IMG/VR virus record: IMGVR_UViG_3300030613_000008
Location: 29,508 to 93,507 of that record
Length of the DNA: 64,000 bases
From: a virus
Lineage: Duplodnaviria > Caudoviricetes
Direction: 5' to 3' (one strand)
The number at the start of each line of letters is the position of its first letter. Position 1 is the first letter of the stretch. A program made the translations under genes and the position numbers. The notes under the pieces were generated by a model. It saw only the letters and a program-made list of their open reading frames with translations. It was not told the DNA's origin and searched no databases. Of this stretch, positions 2,098 to 55,090 are shown piece by piece.

Positions 2098-4626
2098 ATG
2101 CGGACCATCTTCGACATCATAGCGCGCGACAACGCCAGCGGGACGCTGAACAAAGTGGACCGCTCCATGAAGAACCTGGGAAACAGCGCGCGGACTACCG
2201 AGAAAAGCATGGCGCGCGGTTCCGGTGCTGGCGCGGGTGGTACGTTCGGTGCTGGTTCCGGCGGTCCGTTCGCCAAGATGCTGACCGGCGGGGCCATGAT
2301 GGTGGCAGGCGACAAGATGATGGACTTCTCCATCAACGTCGCCCGTAGTTCTCGGACGATGGAGGGTGCGATCGGCACGATGAAAGCCTACGGTGCGTCG
2401 ACCGAAGACCTAGCGCGGGCGCAAGACGCGGCGTTTAAGTCCGGGTTCAACATGGACCGGCAGGCGGAAGCGCTCAAGTCGTTCACCACAGAGGGGTTCA
2501 ACGCGGCCGATTCCGCGAAGATGCTCGGGCCTGCCATGCAAATGATGAAGTTCGGGCAGATGTCCGCTACAGAATCTTCCGGGTTCCTCGCCGACACGCT
2601 TGACCAATTCAGCCTCTCGGCAGGGCGCGGGCAGGATGTCACAAACAAGATGGCGAAGGCCATGCAGATGTTCGGCATCCAAGGTCCGGAGATGGTGTCC
2701 ATGTTCCGTGGCGCGGCGTCTGGCGCGAACCTTGCCGGGGCTGGTTTCGAGGATGTGTTGCTCACCACGGGCATGATAAAGAAGGTGTTGCCGGATGCTG
2801 GGAAGGCGGCGATGGCGGCGAACCAAGCGTTCATGCAACTCGCCGACGAGAACGTGAGGAAGGAACTTCACGGCCAGGGTGTGGAGGTTCTCGACTCAAA
2901 CAAGAAATTCCGTTCCCTCACGGACATCCTCGCCGACCTGATAACGCAGACGGACGGCATGACGGAATCGCAGCGGGCGTCTGAACTGGCGTCCATCTTC
3001 TCGAAGCGTTCGGCCGGTGGGTTGAGCGTCATCATGAAGCAGTTGACTGAAGGTGTGACCGACGCGGAAGGCAAGATGTACAAGGGCGCGGACGCGGCGC
3101 GCTACCTCGCTTCGCAGATGGCGGACTCCGGCGACGCGGCCAAGGTCATGTACGACGCCATGATGAACACGACCACGGGCGCAGACGAAGAGTTTGCAAA
3201 CGCAAAGACGAGGATGAACGCGACGTTCGGCAGCGCCACCCAAGGCATCTACATCAAGGCCATGCGGGCGCTCGCGGGAGGTGTGAACGCCACGGCCGAT
3301 GCGATGAATTCACTCCCGCCCATCGCGCGCACCATCGTTGTCGGGCTGACCGGCGTCACGGGCGTTTTCATCAAGGCGCTTGGCGCGTGCATCCTTCTCG
3401 GCGGTGCCATGCGAATGCTCGGCATTACGTTTCGAGGGTTGCTGTTGACGGTGGGCAAGGTGCTTCTCGTGGGCGTGCCGTTGCTCGGGTTGTTTGGTGC
3501 TCTCGCCGTTGGGTTCTACGGGATGCACCGTGCGGCTGAAAAGAACATCGGAGGGACCGGTGGTTTCTTCACTGGCCTGTGGTCGAAAATCAAGCTCGGG
3601 TTCAAGGGCACGCTGGACCTCATCTCGGGCGGCGGGTTGAGCGAGGCGGTTAAAGGCGAGTTGCAGAAGACGGAGAACTCGGGCGTGGCGAAGTTTCTCG
3701 TGTGGGTGACGGGTGCCATCGGACGCGCCAAGGCGTTCTTCGGCGGCATGGTTGCGGGGTTCGACGCTGGGCTGGCGAAATTGAGCGGACCATTCGAGAG
3801 ATTCAAGACGACGCTCATGGGCATCTTCGGGTTCAGCAACACGAGCGACCCGGCAAAACAGATGGACGAATGGCGGAAATCAGGGGCAAGCCTTGGAGAA
3901 AAGTTCGCCGAGTTGTCAGCGAAGGTGCTTGATTTTGCCGGTGGCGCGTTGACGTCGTTGAAGGGGTTGTTCAACGACATTTCGCTCAAGGACGTTGAGA
4001 CGGGATTGAAAGGAATTCTGACTGTTTTCAACGCCATGGCGAAGGTTGTCCAGTGGATAGCGGATGCGTTCACGACTATCGTCGACATGAAAAATGCGGC
4101 GTTTACGCTCGGGAAGGGTGCCGAAAACATGAGCGCCGCCGAGATGCTTGGAGTGACGCGCGGGGCTGGCGGAACGCAGGCGAGAAAAAATCTTGCTGGT
4201 CAATTCGAGAACGTCGACAGAGCCGTACAAGAAGGAAAGTACGATAAAGCATTCGGGCAGCAAGTGAAGATTGGACTCTACAAGCGGATGGCTGGTGTCG
4301 CAACAATCGGGAACATGGAAACAATCAGGAGCATCATGGATACCCTCAGTGCTCCGAGTAGAAAAATAGCATCCGCAATTGGATACACGCACGGGGTAGA
4401 AGGTCTTGGCAGAAGAGGAGACCACGGCGTTGCGCAGCGTGAGCAAAACAGAATGACAGACGCCTTGAACGGACTCGCGAAGAGCATCGACAAGGGATTT
4501 TCCATAAGCGTCGATAGCCAGACGTTTGGCAAGGCCGTGTCCAATGTCAGCAGCGAATCCGGCGACCGCAACTACGAAGAGGACTGGGGCGCTACACCGA
4601 CCGACCCGGTTTCGGTTTGGAGATAG
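2098..4626 (+). CDS. Tail tape measure protein (TP901-like)
   Basis: IIARDNASGTL start, Ala/Gly-rich helical body, GVEVLDSNKKFRSLTDIL motif, central hydrophobic stretch. Confidence 0.9.
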   Translation: MRTIFDIIARDNASGTLNKVDRSMKNLGNSARTTEKSMARGSGAGAGGTFGAGSGGPFAKMLTGGAMMVAGDKMMDFSINVARSSRTMEGAIGTMKAYGASTEDLARAQDAAFKSGFNMDRQAEALKSFTTEGFNAADSAKMLGPAMQMMKFGQMSATESSGFLADTLDQFSLSAGRGQDVTNKMAKAMQMFGIQGPEMVSMFRGAASGANLAGAGFEDVLLTTGMIKKVLPDAGKAAMAANQAFMQLADENVRKELHGQGVEVLDSNKKFRSLTDILADLITQTDGMTESQRASELASIFSKRSAGGLSVIMKQLTEGVTDAEGKMYKGADAARYLASQMADSGDAAKVMYDAMMNTTTGADEEFANAKTRMNATFGSATQGIYIKAMRALAGGVNATADAMNSLPPIARTIVVGLTGVTGVFIKALGACILLGGAMRMLGITFRGLLLTVGKVLLVGVPLLGLFGALAVGFYGMHRAAEKNIGGTGGFFTGLWSKIKLGFKGTLDLISGGGLSEAVKGELQKTENSGVAKFLVWVTGAIGRAKAFFGGMVAGFDAGLAKLSGPFERFKTTLMGIFGFSNTSDPAKQMDEWRKSGASLGEKFAELSAKVLDFAGGALTSLKGLFNDISLKDVETGLKGILTVFNAMAKVVQWIADAFTTIVDMKNAAFTLGKGAENMSAAEMLGVTRGAGGTQARKNLAGQFENVDRAVQEGKYDKAFGQQVKIGLYKRMAGVATIGNMETIRSIMDTLSAPSRKIASAIGYTHGVEGLGRRGDHGVAQREQNRMTDALNGLAKSIDKGFSISVDSQTFGKAVSNVSSESGDRNYEEDWGATPTDPVSVWR

Positions 4627-36137: not shown

Positions 36138-36165
36138 CATGGGCAGCGAGAAAAAGGAGACGCAA

Positions 36166-37186: not shown

Positions 37187-37215
37187 TTGACAAATCCAAC
37201 CGTCGGCCGTACATT
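37187..37215 (+). promoter_or_regulatory. Sigma70-like promoter
   Basis: TTGACA-17 nt-TACATT. Confidence 0.7.
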
Positions 37216-37223
37216 GCAATCAT

Positions 37224-37320
37224 GCTTCGCGCCTCCCAAGAAGCTCCCGACGGGCCACACGAGAGTCCCCCCACTCCCGTTGTCCACCTCACGTCGAGGG
37301 CTTCTTAGGGGGCGTGAGGC
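37224..37320 (+). ncRNA. Long leader hairpin carrying anti-GAGGTGGAC sequence
   Basis: 29-bp stem 37224-37252/37292-37320 with 4 G-U and 2 C-A; loop contains GTTGTCCACCTCA. Confidence 0.65.
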
Positions 37321-37333
37321 CGCAAGGGGATTC

Positions 37334-37876
37334 ATGCCGCACCGCTCTAAAGCCTTCCTCGCCTTCGTCCACACCGCGCGTCGTGACGGCCTGTGCGTGG
37401 CGTGCGAGTCGCGGACGTGGAGCCAACTTCACCATTTTGGATCCGATGGCGGCGCGGGGCTCAAGCCGTCGGACTATCTGGTTGTGCGGTTGTGCCGGGA
37501 GTGTCACGCGGATTCGGTCTCCGGACGAAAAATTCTGGCAATGCGCCGAGATGGGTTCGACCAGATGGCGGCCGACTATCTCGCCGACGCGGCGGACTCC
37601 CTGTCCCTGTGGTCCGCGCACCTCGAAAGCCGCCTTGCCGAATCCGAGGCGAACGGATGCGCTCGTGACGAGCTGGTCACGTGGCTCATGGATTACGACG
37701 CAACCGACCTGGCAGGCGCGGAGGCGTGGCTTCTCGCGTGGGCGCACCGTCGGCACGCGAACGCGCTAGAAGGGTTCTGCGAGGCGTTGGGGGAGGTTGT
37801 GAAGGCGGACAGTCTGGAAGGCGCGCGGTTCACCGCGGACCGGGCGCTAAAGGCGTGGCTTCCCGGTCAAACTTGA
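37334..37876 (+). CDS. DUF968/NinG-like His-Cys nuclease-fold protein
   Basis: RSKAFLAFV..CVAC..HH..GAGLKPSD..VRLCRECH. Confidence 0.7.
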   Translation: MPHRSKAFLAFVHTARRDGLCVACESRTWSQLHHFGSDGGAGLKPSDYLVVRLCRECHADSVSGRKILAMRRDGFDQMAADYLADAADSLSLWSAHLESRLAESEANGCARDELVTWLMDYDATDLAGAEAWLLAWAHRRHANALEGFCEALGEVVKADSLEGARFTADRALKAWLPGQT

Positions 37877-50546: not shown

Positions 50547-50833
50547 CGACCACCAACGACCTGGAACGGGAAGAGCGCGCCTACGAGAAGACGACCGTTG
50601 ACCGCAGCGTCTACGGCAACTTCACGATTGCCGACCTGCGTGAAGCGTTCGACCGCGTGTCGCCGAAGAACTGGAAGGACCCGATCGCGTGTTCGTGCAA
50701 CGGTGGGACGGTCAACCTCGTGTGCGCGGCCATCTCGTTTTTCACGGGGTCGGTGGCCCACGTCGAAGTCGACGTGCGGACGATGACCTACTACATTGAG
50801 GCGGAGGGGTACTACGCCGCGTGCGGGTCGTGA
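50543..50833 (+). CDS. Small early protein
   Basis: AAAAAGGAGA RBS; NWKDPI...AISFFTG...AEGYY. Confidence 0.65.
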   Translation: MTTTNDLEREERAYEKTTVDRSVYGNFTIADLREAFDRVSPKNWKDPIACSCNGGTVNLVCAAISFFTGSVAHVEVDVRTMTYYIEAEGYYAACGS

Positions 50834-50893
50834 GCCGAAACCGCCTGCGGGCGGTCGCCACGGTTGGCTACCGTGGCCTGATGAGGCAGCCGA
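50834..50893 (+). ncRNA. Type II hammerhead ribozyme
   Basis: GCC-GAAA-stem III(CCGCC/GGCGG)-TC-stem I(GCCACGGT/ACCGTGGC)-CTGATGA-GGC; loop I can pair with 3' AGCCG. Confidence 0.85.
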
Positions 50894-50908
50894 AAAGGAG
50901 AGACAACG

Positions 50909-51142
50909 ATGGCATACAGGGTGAGATTGGGCGGGTCGCCGAAGGACAGCGGGGTTGTGTTATTCGACATGGACGACGCCGAGGAGGCCGCTGTGAACAT
51001 GGCCAAGCGGCGGTGCAAGGAGACGGACGACGACGCGGACACCGTGGAAATCTACGGGGAAGAGGGAACCGGCGCTGCGTGGGGTGCCTGCCCCGAGGGC
51101 GACGACGGCGCGTATTACTCGTTCATCACGGTTGAGGACTGA
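50909..51142 (+). CDS. Small acidic early protein
   Basis: GAAAAGGAGA RBS. Confidence 0.65.
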   Translation: MAYRVRLGGSPKDSGVVLFDMDDAEEAAVNMAKRRCKETDDDADTVEIYGEEGTGAAWGACPEGDDGAYYSFITVED

Positions 51143-51193
51143 CCGGAACTTGCGAATTTGCGCAAGTTCACAAATTAAGAGGGAGATTCAACG

Positions 51194-51343
51194 ATGGGAC
51201 GAAAGCTGTACAAGGTGGTGCTAGACGACGATGACCGCGCGCAGTTGGCGCGGGAGTTCGAGTTGGCTTGGCGGCAGCGGTGCGAGATGGCGGCGGCGCA
51301 GTGGGAGTTCGAGCGCGGGAGGAGAATCGCGCCGACGTTCTGA
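51194..51343 (+). CDS. Small protein (49 aa, below ORF-track cutoff)
   Basis: RBS AGAGGGAG; MGRKLYKVVLDDDDRAQLAREF. Confidence 0.5.
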   Translation: MGRKLYKVVLDDDDRAQLAREFELAWRQRCEMAAAQWEFERGRRIAPTF

Positions 51344-51354
51344 GAGGTGTCCAG

Positions 51355-51431
51355 GGTTCCCCCCTGGGCGGTGCGTCCGAGCCGGGTTAATCTCCTTTTC
51401 CTGGTTTGGGCGTACCGCCGAGGGGTGAACC
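51355..51431 (+). ncRNA. Long hairpin with anti-AAAAGGAGA loop
   Basis: 32-nt arms, 5 G-U, 2 mismatches; loop TTAATCTCCTTTT. Confidence 0.65.
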
Positions 51432-51446
51432 GAAAAGGAGAACACG

Positions 51447-51683
51447 ATGGACTACCCGAATCCGATGGTGCGAGAGACGACGCTACGACACGACGACGAC
51501 ACCGACCTTGTGCGTGTCGCCATGCCGACAGACGACCAGGTGGTTGTGTTCCGAGGACCGGCCGGGGCGTTGACGGAGTTCTCGCGCGGGAAGTTCGAGA
51601 CGCAGAAACAGGCGGCACAGTACTACTGCGCCAAGGTCAACGGCTTGCACGCGGCGGGGTGGCAAACCCTGTCGTTCGCGTAG
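51447..51683 (+). CDS. Small early protein
   Basis: GAAAAGGAGA RBS. Confidence 0.6.
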   Translation: MDYPNPMVRETTLRHDDDTDLVRVAMPTDDQVVVFRGPAGALTEFSRGKFETQKQAAQYYCAKVNGLHAAGWQTLSFA

Positions 51684-51690
51684 GTGCAAC

Positions 51691-52488
51691 GTGAGCGACT
51701 ACCAGGGCCGCAAGGCCGCGCGAATCGAGCGGCTACACGAGCGCGCCGAGAAGAAGGCGGGGCAGGCGAGCGCATCGTTCGAGGCCACGCGGAAACTCGC
51801 GGATTCGATTCCTTTTGGTCAGCCAATTTTACGCGGGCACCACAGTGAGGCTCACGCTCGCCGAGACTGCGAGCGTATCCAGCGCGGCATGGAGTGCGGT
51901 TGCGAAGCGCAGAAGGAAGCCGCCGAGCTAGAGCGCCGTGCCGAAGCGGCCGAGCGCAACACCTCGATTTCATCCGACGACCCGGACGCACTGGACGCCT
52001 TGCGCGCGAAGCTCTTGAAGATGGAGACGTTGCGCGCGGACATGACCCGCATCAACCGGCAGTATCGAGGTGGCGGGGTGGACGCCGTGACGGGCATCTC
52101 AGACGACCAGCGGGAGAAGATACGGGCAGCGATGGCGGACCGCTCGTGTGGCGTGAGGCGTGCCCCGTTCGAGGCGTACCAGTTGACGAACCTCGGCGCG
52201 AAGATACGCGCGACGGCCAAGCGGATCGGGGAGCTGGAAGCCAAGGAGGCGGACGTGACGACAGAGGAACGGCACGGGGACGTGGTGCTCCGTGACGACG
52301 TTGAGGCGAACCGGCTCATGCTCGTGTTTCCCGGCAAACCCGACCAGGCGACAATCGACGCGCTCAAGGGATACGGGTTCCGGTGGTCGCCGAGTAACGG
52401 GGCGTGGCAGCGGATGCGCGGGTACGGAGCGCGGGCGTGCGCGTTGGCCGTGCTGAAAACGCTGGAAGCCAGTAACGGCGCGGGCTAG
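51691..52488 (+). CDS. DUF3560 domain protein
   Basis: IPFGQPILRGHHSE..ARR, ISSDDPDA, FPGKP...LKGYGFRWSP..GAWQR. Confidence 0.85.
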   Translation: MSDYQGRKAARIERLHERAEKKAGQASASFEATRKLADSIPFGQPILRGHHSEAHARRDCERIQRGMECGCEAQKEAAELERRAEAAERNTSISSDDPDALDALRAKLLKMETLRADMTRINRQYRGGGVDAVTGISDDQREKIRAAMADRSCGVRRAPFEAYQLTNLGAKIRATAKRIGELEAKEADVTTEERHGDVVLRDDVEANRLMLVFPGKPDQATIDALKGYGFRWSPSNGAWQRMRGYGARACALAVLKTLEASNGAG

Positions 52489-53352: not shown

Positions 53353-53589
53353 GTGTTTCGCGCCTTCGAATCCTCGCTTACTCGCGGCCTCATTCGAGGT
53401 CAAGTGCTCACCTGCGAACTCGCGACGGCCTCTGCGGTCAACCTCGTGGAGCCGCAACGGGGGCCGTGGGTGCTCTTGACGGCGAGCGGAGAGCGGACGG
53501 TGTACCAGACGCCAATCGCCGCAGCCCGTGCGTGGCGCTATCTCATGCACTGGCAGATACAGATTGACAACGACAAACGGCCGTGCTAG
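53353..53589 (+). CDS. Hypothetical protein
   Basis: Coupled ORF ending in the promoter region. Confidence 0.4.
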   Translation: MFRAFESSLTRGLIRGQVLTCELATASAVNLVEPQRGPWVLLTASGERTVYQTPIAAARAWRYLMHWQIQIDNDKRPC

Positions 53590-53747
53590 CGATAGCACAA
53601 CAGGAGGTGGACAACATGGGGAAGACAACTGCTACCGAAAACAACTCCGAACAGGGATGATGAGGGGCAATCGGCCGATTCAAATGGCGCTTGACAACCG
53701 TGTCGGGATGCTGTACCTATATGTTGTTACAGCTGGAGGTGGGGAAA

Positions 53748-53885
53748 TTGGCTTCAGTTACAATTCCAGAAAAGACGAAATGTCTACGGTGTGGGCACGA
53801 ATGGACTCCGCGGCAAGCGGAAGTCACCCGCTGTCCGAAGTGCGGAAGTCCATACTGGAATCGTCCAAGGAAGAGTCCGAAGTGA
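53748..53885 (+). CDS. 45-aa Zn-ribbon protein coupled to TnpB
   Basis: RBS GGAGGTG, TTG start; CLRCGHEW.PR...CPKCGSPYW; GTGA overlap with tnpB. Confidence 0.75.
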   Translation: MASVTIPEKTKCLRCGHEWTPRQAEVTRCPKCGSPYWNRPRKSPK

Positions 53886-55090
53886 AATCCTACCGCACCG
53901 AGTTGAATTTGAACGATAAGCAGCGTACGGCGTGTTTGCAGCATGCAGGAGTGGCGCGGTTCGCGTACAACTTCGGACTGCGGCGCAAGCGGGAAGCATA
54001 CGAGACGACTGGCAAGAGTCCATCTGCCATCGATTTGCACCGGGAACTGAACGCACTCAAGAAGACCGAATTCCCGTGGATGTATGAGGTCAGCAAGTGC
54101 GCGCCCCAGGAAGCCTTGCGGAATCTGGACAAGGCGTTTGAAGGGTTTTTCCGTCGGTGCAAGGAGAAGTCGGCGCGGAAGGGGTACCCGAAGTTCAAGA
54201 GCCGGAAGCGCGGCATCGGATCGTTCACGTTGACGGGGGCAATTCACGTGACGGAACAGACTATCCAATTGCCGCGACTGGGTGTGTTGCGACTCAAGGA
54301 ACGTGGGTACTTTCCGACGGCGGCTCATATCACGCGGGCAACGGTATCGGAGCGAGTTGGTCGGTGGTTCGTGTCCATCCTGGTGGACGAGGAGCCGGTG
54401 CGTACAAAGGGCACGGAGGTACTCGGAGTGGACGTGGGCATCGCGCACTTGGCAGTGCTGTCGGATGGAACGGTGTTCGAGAATCCGCGAGCGTTGAAGA
54501 CGGCACAGGAGCGGGTGCGACGGTTGCAGAAGTCGGTGAGTCGGAAGGTAAAGGGATCTAGAAATCGGAAGAAGGCAGTCAACAAGTTGGCGAAGCAGCA
54601 TTATCGGGTGTCGTGCGTGCGGAGCAACGCGATTCATCAGGCGACGAACGCGATAGCCAAGCGAGCGTCGGTTGTAGGAATCGAGACGTTGAACGTGCGC
54701 GGGATGCTGCGGAATCACTGCTTGGCGGGTGCATTGTCCGACGCGAGCATGTCCGAGTTTTTACGACAGCTAGAATACAAGATAGAATGGACAGGTGGCA
54801 TAGTAGTGAAGGCGGATCGATGGTACCCATCATCAAAGACGTGTTCAGATTGTGGAACAGTAGTGAACGATTTACCGTTGTCGGTGCGGGAATGGTCCTG
54901 TGCCGAGTGCGGTATCGTCCATGATCGAGACGTGAATGCGGCGATTAACCTGAAGAACATGGCCGCGAGTTTCGCGGTGACAGCCTGTCGTCCTGGGAGC
55001 GCTGGTCCGACTCGCAAGAGAAGGACGAAACTTCTGGTTGGGCAGGAAATCAACACTAGACAGGGCACGTCCCTGGGAGGGTCAGTTTGA
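53882..55090 (+). CDS. tnpB: RNA-guided endonuclease TnpB
   Basis: ARFAYN, GYPKFK, RuvC GVDVG / IETLNV / DRDVNAA, SSKTCSDCG and CAECG Zn ribbon. Confidence 0.95.
   Translation: MKSYRTELNLNDKQRTACLQHAGVARFAYNFGLRRKREAYETTGKSPSAIDLHRELNALKKTEFPWMYEVSKCAPQEALRNLDKAFEGFFRRCKEKSARKGYPKFKSRKRGIGSFTLTGAIHVTEQTIQLPRLGVLRLKERGYFPTAAHITRATVSERVGRWFVSILVDEEPVRTKGTEVLGVDVGIAHLAVLSDGTVFENPRALKTAQERVRRLQKSVSRKVKGSRNRKKAVNKLAKQHYRVSCVRSNAIHQATNAIAKRASVVGIETLNVRGMLRNHCLAGALSDASMSEFLRQLEYKIEWTGGIVVKADRWYPSSKTCSDCGTVVNDLPLSVREWSCAECGIVHDRDVNAAINLKNMAASFAVTACRPGSAGPTRKRRTKLLVGQEINTRQGTSLGGSV

Follow-up and report, generated by a model that had tools for sequence, protein, structure and literature searches.

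What is the role of a 77-nucleotide (nt) RNA hairpin that sits between two small genes in an uncultured phage of soil type and exposes a loop complementary to ribosome-binding sites (RBSs) of the same phage? This question is raised by positions 51355-51431 (+ strand) of a 64-kb stretch of viral DNA (hereafter the window), which comprises bases 29508-93507 of the 93.5-kb IMG/VR virus record IMGVR_UViG_3300030613_000008, a record that is 98% complete. The hairpin lies directly downstream of a 49-aa gene, here called gene B (51194-51343, + strand; protein P0001), and it is followed by a 78-aa gene on the same strand, gene C (reading frame 51447-51683, AUG at 51447). Judged from the sequences, the hairpin is real, is selected as RNA, is absent from Rfam, and is known from three genomes. 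As for its mechanism, analogy points to either processing and message stability or antisense control, both of which would be of known kinds. We tentatively favor, with somewhat less than even confidence, a cis-acting intercistronic processing or stability hairpin of the gene B message, most likely a substrate of RNase III.

Structure and conservation of the hairpin

The 5′ arm of the hairpin (51355-51386) begins 11 nt past the UGA of gene B, and the 3′ arm (51400-51431) ends directly at the RBS of gene C, GAAAAGGAGA (51432-51441, + strand). The arms enclose a 13-nt loop, UUAAUCUCCUUUU (51387-51399), whose core UCUCCUUU (51391-51398) is common to all three phages. An earlier note on this DNA had described these arms as pairing over 32 nt, with an uninterrupted inner helix of 20 bp that includes five G·U pairs, and both the sequence and its predicted fold bear this out. 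A total of 30 out of 32 arm positions are paired, the exceptions being two 1x1 mismatches (C51360xU51426 and G51366xG51420). From base to top, the structure consists of 5 bp, the C×U mismatch, 5 bp, the G×G mismatch, 20 uninterrupted bp, and the 13-nt loop. The inner helix joins 51367-51386 to 51400-51419, and its G·U pairs are found at 51373/51413, 51376/51410, 51379/51407, 51381/51405, and 51384/51402. The base of the stem is placed 15 nt before the downstream AUG, and this distance is 15-16 nt in both relatives.

The + strand folds with a minimum free energy (MFE) of -65.5 kcal/mol and a z-score of -5.73, a stability that none of 200 shuffled sequences equaled. Meanwhile, the minus strand reaches only -41.6 kcal/mol (z -1.88), because each G·U pair turns into an A·C clash on that strand. 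The structure is therefore specific to the + strand RNA. When 100-nt windows were scanned on both strands, the hairpin came out as the most stable in each of the three phage genomes, and in this genome it scored -64.3 against a mean of -31.1 (standard deviation 6.8). In both IMG/VR genomes, it also displayed the widest strand gap among the most stable windows listed. The second most stable window of this genome (~37219-37318) scored -54.5 on the minus strand and -49.4 on the plus strand, and an overlapping hairpin at 37187-37336 folds on the + strand with -66.1 kcal/mol and a z-score of -3.9. The arms of the hairpin have no match of at least 13 nt elsewhere in their own genome, save for one chance-level 13-mer in the relative JAQUPQ (described below), and a covariance model (R1) detected one copy per genome and no paralogues.

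Searches of a public phage collection by megablast, blastn, and tblastn returned no match, and protein-guided and DNA-pattern scans of IMG/VR, metagenomes, and GTDB genomes identified only two relatives of this phage (G000). These are G001, the 86-kb record IMGVR_UViG_3300032156_000003, and JAQUPQ010000012.1 (G002:C12, 93 kb; hereafter JAQUPQ), a phage-like contig binned in a metagenome-assembled genome (MAG) of Terriglobia. The other 16 loci that matched a 17-mer of the 5′ arm are coding sequence with no hairpin, hence chance matches, and locus L025 was rejected as a relative since its reading frame is an unrelated dehydrogenase-like gene. Gene B is equally rare. Among 5.8 billion proteins, its only homologues are P0002 (82% identity) and P0003 (73% identity to the query, 75% in alignment A1), so that three protein clusters exist in total.

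The hairpin occurs 11 nt past gene B in all three phages. In G001, the order is a hammerhead ribozyme, an unrelated receiver-domain gene, gene B, the hairpin, and the start of gene C. In JAQUPQ, homology to the window ends at the 3′ base of the stem, and the gene that follows is unrelated, encoding a 37-aa phrog_8760 protein. The constant linkage to gene B, together with this unrelated downstream gene, suggests that the hairpin belongs to the upstream module. Its other border is also constant in kind, as a AAAGGAGA-type RBS follows within 0-5 nt in all three phages.

The three copies share one fold, made of 4-5 bp, a 1x1 mismatch, 5 bp, the GxG mismatch, 20-21 bp, and a loop of 12-13 nt. Between this phage and G001, two pairs of the lower stem are altered on both sides (U-A to C-G and C-G to A-U), three further stem changes retain wobble pairing, and the top of the stem has passed from GGG/CCU (three pairs) to UGCG/CGUG (four pairs), with new G·U pairs. 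In JAQUPQ, one pair is broken in the middle of the stem and another, the outermost, at its base. Across the alignment, 97.5% of the cells are paired, compared to 35-56% when the partner strand is slid; 48 out of 500 shuffles reach the observed value, a test that is weak with three sequences. The earlier note had taken the G·U pairs as a pattern expected of RNA-level selection. We arrive at the same conclusion on wider grounds: the strand asymmetry, the compensatory and wobble-keeping changes, and the top stability in three genomes collectively indicate that selection is acting on the structure of the + strand RNA.

A candidate processing signal of the gene B message

The genes around the hairpin are all encoded on the + strand, small, and without a known family. 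A prediction scan of the + strand between 48000 and 54000 revealed no sigma-70-like promoter, although the promoter type of the host may differ, and no U-tract terminator. The sequence that follows the stem is GAAAAGGAGAAC, GAAAAAGGAGAAC, or AACAAAGGAGAG in the three phages, and none of these contains a U run. Since neither kind of signal was found and RBS-led genes stand on both sides, the hairpin is probably an intercistronic spacer inside one long message. No Rfam family fits the hairpin in the region searched (50700-51700). The matches that overlap it are chance-level microRNA families and flg-Rhizobiales (E 3.3-8), and on locus L023 of JAQUPQ mir-9242 scores 36 bits against a gathering score of 62. 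The microRNA-like matches (E 3.8-8) arise because the element is a long hairpin. In addition, neither a family match nor a catalytic core of the self-cleaving ribozymes (hammerhead, twister, pistol, hatchet, HDV-like, and hairpin) was found in it.

We postulate that the hairpin sits in a polycistronic, early-type phage message, as a determinant of processing and stability that would belong to the upstream 49-aa gene. Its 30-bp duplex, 20 bp of which are uninterrupted, would be bound and cut by the double-strand-specific RNase III of the host, and this cut would separate the upstream from the downstream message. The upstream message would start at the cleavage site of a hammerhead ribozyme (described below), which is located 575 nt 5′ of the hairpin in this phage. 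Alternatively, if only one strand were cut, or if the stem brought decay to a halt, the hairpin would shield the end of the upstream message from 3′ exonucleases. Meanwhile, the base of the stem, by abutting the next RBS, would hold this site unpaired and in constant surroundings. That the genes share one transcript, that RNase III cuts it, and that the hairpin affects stability are what we infer.

A close precedent is found in phage T7. The idealized RNase III substrate of E. coli has 22 bp, corresponding to two helical turns, and the polycistronic early precursor of T7 carries five RNase III signals (PMC3867540). Internal mismatches favor cuts in a single strand, which leave stabilizing 3′ hairpins, and in T7 the hairpins left at 3′ ends stabilize the upstream mRNA (PMC3867540). 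With 20 uninterrupted pairs and 10 more across two 1x1 mismatches, the stem described here falls within the length expected of RNase III substrates (~20-22 bp or more). Like the signals of the T7 early mRNA (R0.3-R1.3), it is a long and probably intercistronic phage hairpin of at least ~2 helical turns with small internal mismatches. Lambda sib and the N-leader hairpins are comparable RNase III processing signals. The resemblance to the T7 signals has limits, as there is no sequence homology and the almost perfect stem of the present hairpin, in which five G·U pairs are conserved, exceeds those of T7 in length and bears a large loop that contains a conserved anti-RBS core. The MAG that was binned with the JAQUPQ contig encodes an RNase III (128.6 bits), bearing in mind that binning is no proof of host, and no RNase III gene was found in the phages themselves.

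Several observations weigh against this interpretation. The length of the duplex is the one feature by which RNase III would be named here. The rules of RNase III reactivity (proximal and distal boxes, antideterminants) are known for few enzymes only, and the host in the present case is only a candidate. Each genome carries a single giant hairpin and not a series of them, unlike T7 with its five early signals. JAQUPQ encodes a second gene B paralogue with no hairpin, suggesting that gene B has no strict need of it. The central 17 bp are identical between this phage and G001, compared to an 18% difference at the third-codon positions of gene B, which hints at a sequence-specific recognition that processing does not include. 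Finally, a pure processing or stability hairpin would not need a loop of 12-13 nt with a fixed 8-nt anti-RBS core. As the conservation of this core falls outside a processing role, pairing between the loop and RBSs may act together with processing.

The loop and the competing explanations

According to the earlier note, positions 51391-51400 are the exact complement of the RBS motif at 51432 and 50892, and counting of matches confirmed this: TCTCCTTTTC (51391-51400) is complementary over its full length to GAAAAGGAGA at both sites. The motif and its complement occur three times in the window, whereas 0.06 occurrences are expected. The stem is closed by the final C of this 10-nt stretch (51400), which leaves 9 nt for the loop itself. 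Within the window, the + strand contains CTCCTTTT in this loop only. Meanwhile, its complement AAAAGGAG occurs eight times on the + strand, always shortly ahead of the ATG with which a small gene starts, and nine times on both strands together, versus 1.12 expected.

These sites are part of a shared extended RBS cassette with an approximate consensus of CGAAAAAGGAGAAC, followed by 3-6 nt and an ATG, that precedes small accessory genes (window positions 36152, 36391, 36693, 50021, 50529, 50892, 51432, and 52679). Seven out of the nine window genes located behind a AAAAGGAG site have no orthologue in either relative; thus, the cassette seems to travel with mobile small genes. A minus-strand gene starting from the minus-strand AAAAGGAGA was also considered and rejected, as no start codon is found at a workable distance. 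The last codons of gene B (GGG AGG AGA AUC, 51318-51330, + strand) contain an internal run that resembles a Shine-Dalgarno (SD) sequence, GGAGGAGAAU, to which the loop is complementary over 6 nt in this phage and over 8 nt in G001 (AGGAGAAU / AUUCUCCU).

The main rival, which we regard as possible but less likely than not, is that the hairpin is an anti-RBS regulator whose loop, UCUCCUUU(U), pairs with SD regions of the phage itself and lowers their translation, an activity that would be compatible with processing by RNase III. Such a regulator might take three forms. It might act in trans on the small accessory genes of the CGAAAAAGGAGAAC class, in the manner of the C4 RNA of P1 and P7, perhaps after RNase III has cut it out as a ~35-nt mini-hairpin. 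It might fold back onto the RBS of gene B, ~200 nt upstream, in the manner of icaR. Lastly, it might be a processing switch, in which the loop masks the adjacent downstream RBS once the 5′ arm is gone.

The contrast between a single CTCCTTTT in the loop and eight AAAAGGAG sites before small genes speaks in favor of this idea, as does the excess of GAAAAGGAGA and its complement. Moreover, when the loop was ranked against 307 crude candidate initiation regions of this genome, its strongest duplex was with the adjacent downstream RBS (-13.9 kcal/mol) and its fourth strongest with the RBS region of gene B. The earlier note had proposed the latter pairing over 11 nt with two G·U pairs, and it holds: AAUCUCCUUUU pairs with AGAGGGAGAUU (51178-51188, + strand) with a duplexfold energy of -12.9 kcal/mol. 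However, CU-rich loops pair with any strong SD sequence, and by hand alignment JAQUPQ retains 9 bp of the pairing with the gene B RBS and G001 retains 7 bp, so that outside this phage there is only generic SD pairing. Sites of the AAAAGGAGA class are predicted to form a stronger duplex with the loop than with the canonical 16S tail, CCUCCUUUCU (-9.3 kcal/mol). This tail (CACCUCCUUUCU) was read from the MAG that includes the JAQUPQ contig, a candidate host bin.

Comparison with G001 also provides arguments on both sides. Its loop, UUAUUCUCCUUU, retains the 8-nt core UCUCCUUU, even though the base on each side of the core and five out of six bases of the stem top have changed. The two loop changes slide the complementarity by one base along the RBS motif, from AAAAGGAGA to AAAGGAGAA, so that 9 nt are kept. 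The number of + strand AAAAGGAGA sites follows the loop variant: there are eight in this phage, eight in G002, and two in G001, whose loop lost the fourth U. This single contrast is suggestive. Nevertheless, neither loop variant has a clear edge over the other in matching the extended motif GAAAAAGGAGAAC, each of them fits the sites of the other phage about as well as its own, and most genes led by AAAAGGAG are those with no orthologue in the relatives. In addition, inspection by eye indicates that the YUNR turn of the loop (UUAA) is lost in G001.

The geometry of the locus restricts what the loop could do in its own molecule. While the stem is intact, the loop at its top is out of reach of the RBS at its base. 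A cis pseudoknot between the two was rejected on the same grounds, as loop and stem base are ~32 bp apart. When the 5′ arm is removed, the MFE folds of all three phages do pair the loop with the downstream RBS, as a processing switch would require, but these masked folds are no more stable than those of shuffled sequences (z -0.7 to +0.15).

Two precedents lend this type of regulation plausibility. The C4 RNA of P1 and P7 (RF01695) is cut from an operon transcript that it shares with its targets, and its exposed loop occludes an RBS (PMC5320573). In a similar way, the hairpin described here has a loop with 10 nt of exact complementarity to RBSs presumed to be of the same operon (50892 and 51432). 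Nevertheless, C4 has three stem-loops, two target loops (a′ and b′), and an RNase P site, whereas the present element consists of one loop on one 32-bp hairpin; C4 has a unique target, while the complementarity found here is to a generic SD core and its flanking A's. RF01695 had no match at E-values up to 10 in 50700-51700. In icaR of S. aureus, an anti-SD motif in its 3′-UTR (untranslated region), UCCCCUG, blocks the SD sequence of its own message and creates an RNase III substrate (PMC3868564). Like this motif, UCUCCUUU is located 3′ of a coding region and can pair with the SD sequence of the same gene. Yet the icaR message is cellular and monocistronic and has a long 3′-UTR, whereas the present element is probably an intercistronic spacer, and the extended 11-bp pairing occurs only in this phage.

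The earlier note had gone further, envisaging a negative-feedback RNA that accumulates from the early transcript and shuts off early genes. One part of this idea fits our results, namely that the anti-RBS core stays fixed while its flanks and the stem top change. Other parts find no support: a discrete small RNA has neither a promoter nor a terminator in the scanned region, and the hairpin travels with the 49-aa gene and not with a set of targets. A further version would be a mini-hairpin of ~35-77 nt, released by RNase III, that titrates the RBSs of the phage-specific CGAAAAAGGAGAAC cassette as the early message accumulates and thereby imposes a class-specific translational shut-off. The match of the loop to this cassette is 9-10 bp, compared to 7 bp for the host 16S tail. 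We regard this version as doubtful.

A passive hairpin at the end of the gene B message, with no role for an endonuclease or for the loop, is improbable in our view. It would be either a terminator or attenuator that lacks a U-tract or a barrier to exonucleases (a retroregulator). The extreme stability of the element, its position 11 nt past the stop codon, and its linkage to the upstream gene would all be expected of such a structure, and 3′ hairpins are established determinants of message stability (PMC3867540). However, in none of the phages is the stem succeeded by a U run, and no + strand terminator was predicted in the scan. An RBS and a gene begin 0-5 nt past the stem with no promoter-like site between them, and efficient termination would silence these downstream genes. 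The 32-bp stem and the 13-nt loop are also far beyond the usual dimensions of terminators, and the conservation of the loop would be left unexplained.

We consider it quite unlikely that the hairpin is an operator for an RNA-binding protein. In this scenario, a translational repressor of the phage or the host, possibly the 49-aa helical product of gene B itself, would recognize the central duplex with its G·U pairs, mismatches, and loop. The identity of the central 17 bp between this phage and G001, in which the GxG and pyrimidine-U mismatches are fixed as well, is in line with this scenario. So is the comparison with JAQUPQ, where the hairpin differs at ~3 out of 77 positions (counted by eye) and gene B at 30 out of 153 aligned columns, and the tight linkage of the hairpin to one small gene agrees with it. 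Still, this conservation could also arise if paired positions evolve slowly or if the segment was exchanged recently, and a gene B paralogue exists that lacks the hairpin. The gene B product has no recognizable RNA-binding family (searches found no Pfam or PHROG family), and AlphaFold predicts it to be one long helix, spanning residues 12-44. A ribbon-helix-helix fold was dropped as a candidate for this product in view of the same model.

The remaining candidates can be dealt with briefly. A signal in single-stranded DNA, used for priming or packaging on the displaced + strand, is very improbable: DNA hairpins tolerate G·T wobbles and strand specificity would be expected of them too, but the position of the element exactly between a stop codon and an RBS, at conserved distances from each, argues for the message, new G·U pairs arose in G001 (UGCG/CGUG), and no recognizable replication or packaging module is found nearby. 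We rejected the idea that a ribosome finishing gene B causes translational attenuation, as it would stop 11 nt short of the stem and could open only 1-3 pairs, and also a solitary CRISPR-repeat mimic or a TnpB guide RNA, for which size and position are unsuitable.

Neighboring elements and significance

The gene upstream of gene B encodes 77 aa (50909-51142, + strand), and its RBS is the other copy of GAAAAGGAGA (50892-50901). A type II hammerhead ribozyme precedes it at 50833-50895 (+ strand), matching the full model (1-66) of Rfam RF02276 with 53.3 bits against a gathering score of 37. The 3′ tail of this ribozyme, the AGCC pseudoknot strand, runs into the RBS at 50892-50901. Thus, it lies one gene and its intergenic spacer upstream of the hairpin, from which it is a separate element that provides context only. 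G001 also carries a hammerhead (54.9 bits, L002:1967-2029), placed before a different gene, the one encoding the receiver-domain protein, and none was found next to gene B in JAQUPQ. According to one proposal, hammerheads flanking single phage genes serve to split long transcripts into gene-length mRNAs (PMC3088659), and the presence of one nearby counts in favor of a processing role for the hairpin. As in the hammerhead-flanked cassettes of prophages, RNA elements mark gene borders in the present locus, where the ribozyme abuts one RBS and the hairpin the next. Contrary to those cassettes, the hairpin itself has no ribozyme core or Rfam ribozyme match and would need a protein nuclease. The synthetic insulator RiboJ is a related case of an RNA element that cuts or insulates messages at gene borders.

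Other features of the region were recorded. A perfect 9-bp palindrome, GAACTTGCG-AATTTG-CGCAAGTTC (51146-51169, + strand), is found in the gap that separates the stop codon of the 77-aa gene from the gene B RBS. It may serve as a protein operator or form a small hairpin between cistrons; G001 has not kept it and displays TGACA-AAA-TGTCA at this place. A full-length TnpB (OrfB_IS605, with Cas12f1-like TNB and HTH_OrfB_IS605 domains) is encoded at 53528-55090 (+ strand), 2 kb downstream of the hairpin, and directly 3′ of it the same early region carries a gene for an AAA/SMC-like ATPase. In G001, ~335 bp of inserted sequence (L002:~2770-3105) interrupt the homologue of the 78-aa gene once ~15 codons have passed (tblastn matches residues 1-15 and 15-78). 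The insert resembles a TnpB's C-terminal zinc-finger end followed by its RNA tail, and the gene resumes after it. The window also encodes tail and baseplate proteins, and the G+C content of this phage is 61.7%. As for JAQUPQ010000012.1, it is a phage genome related to the window that carries two gene B paralogues, one of them with the hairpin. Both of its contig ends (L023:1-400 and L024:3560-3946) fall inside a gene of ~60-nt tandem repeats, represented by two diverged copies. The contig probably broke in these repeats and may be circular or permuted.

These findings have implications for how phages organize their early messages. If the duplex is a processing site, as we tentatively prefer, a ribozyme and the site of a protein nuclease would together carve one early transcript into defined messages, and the locus would illustrate, in compact and natural form, how messages can be insulated at gene borders. 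If, on the other hand, the loop pairs with RBSs, the hairpin would be a structurally new and uncatalogued addition to the antisense RNAs by which phages control translation (C4, sar, and OOP), and it would support anti-RBS hairpin loops as a general device of phages.

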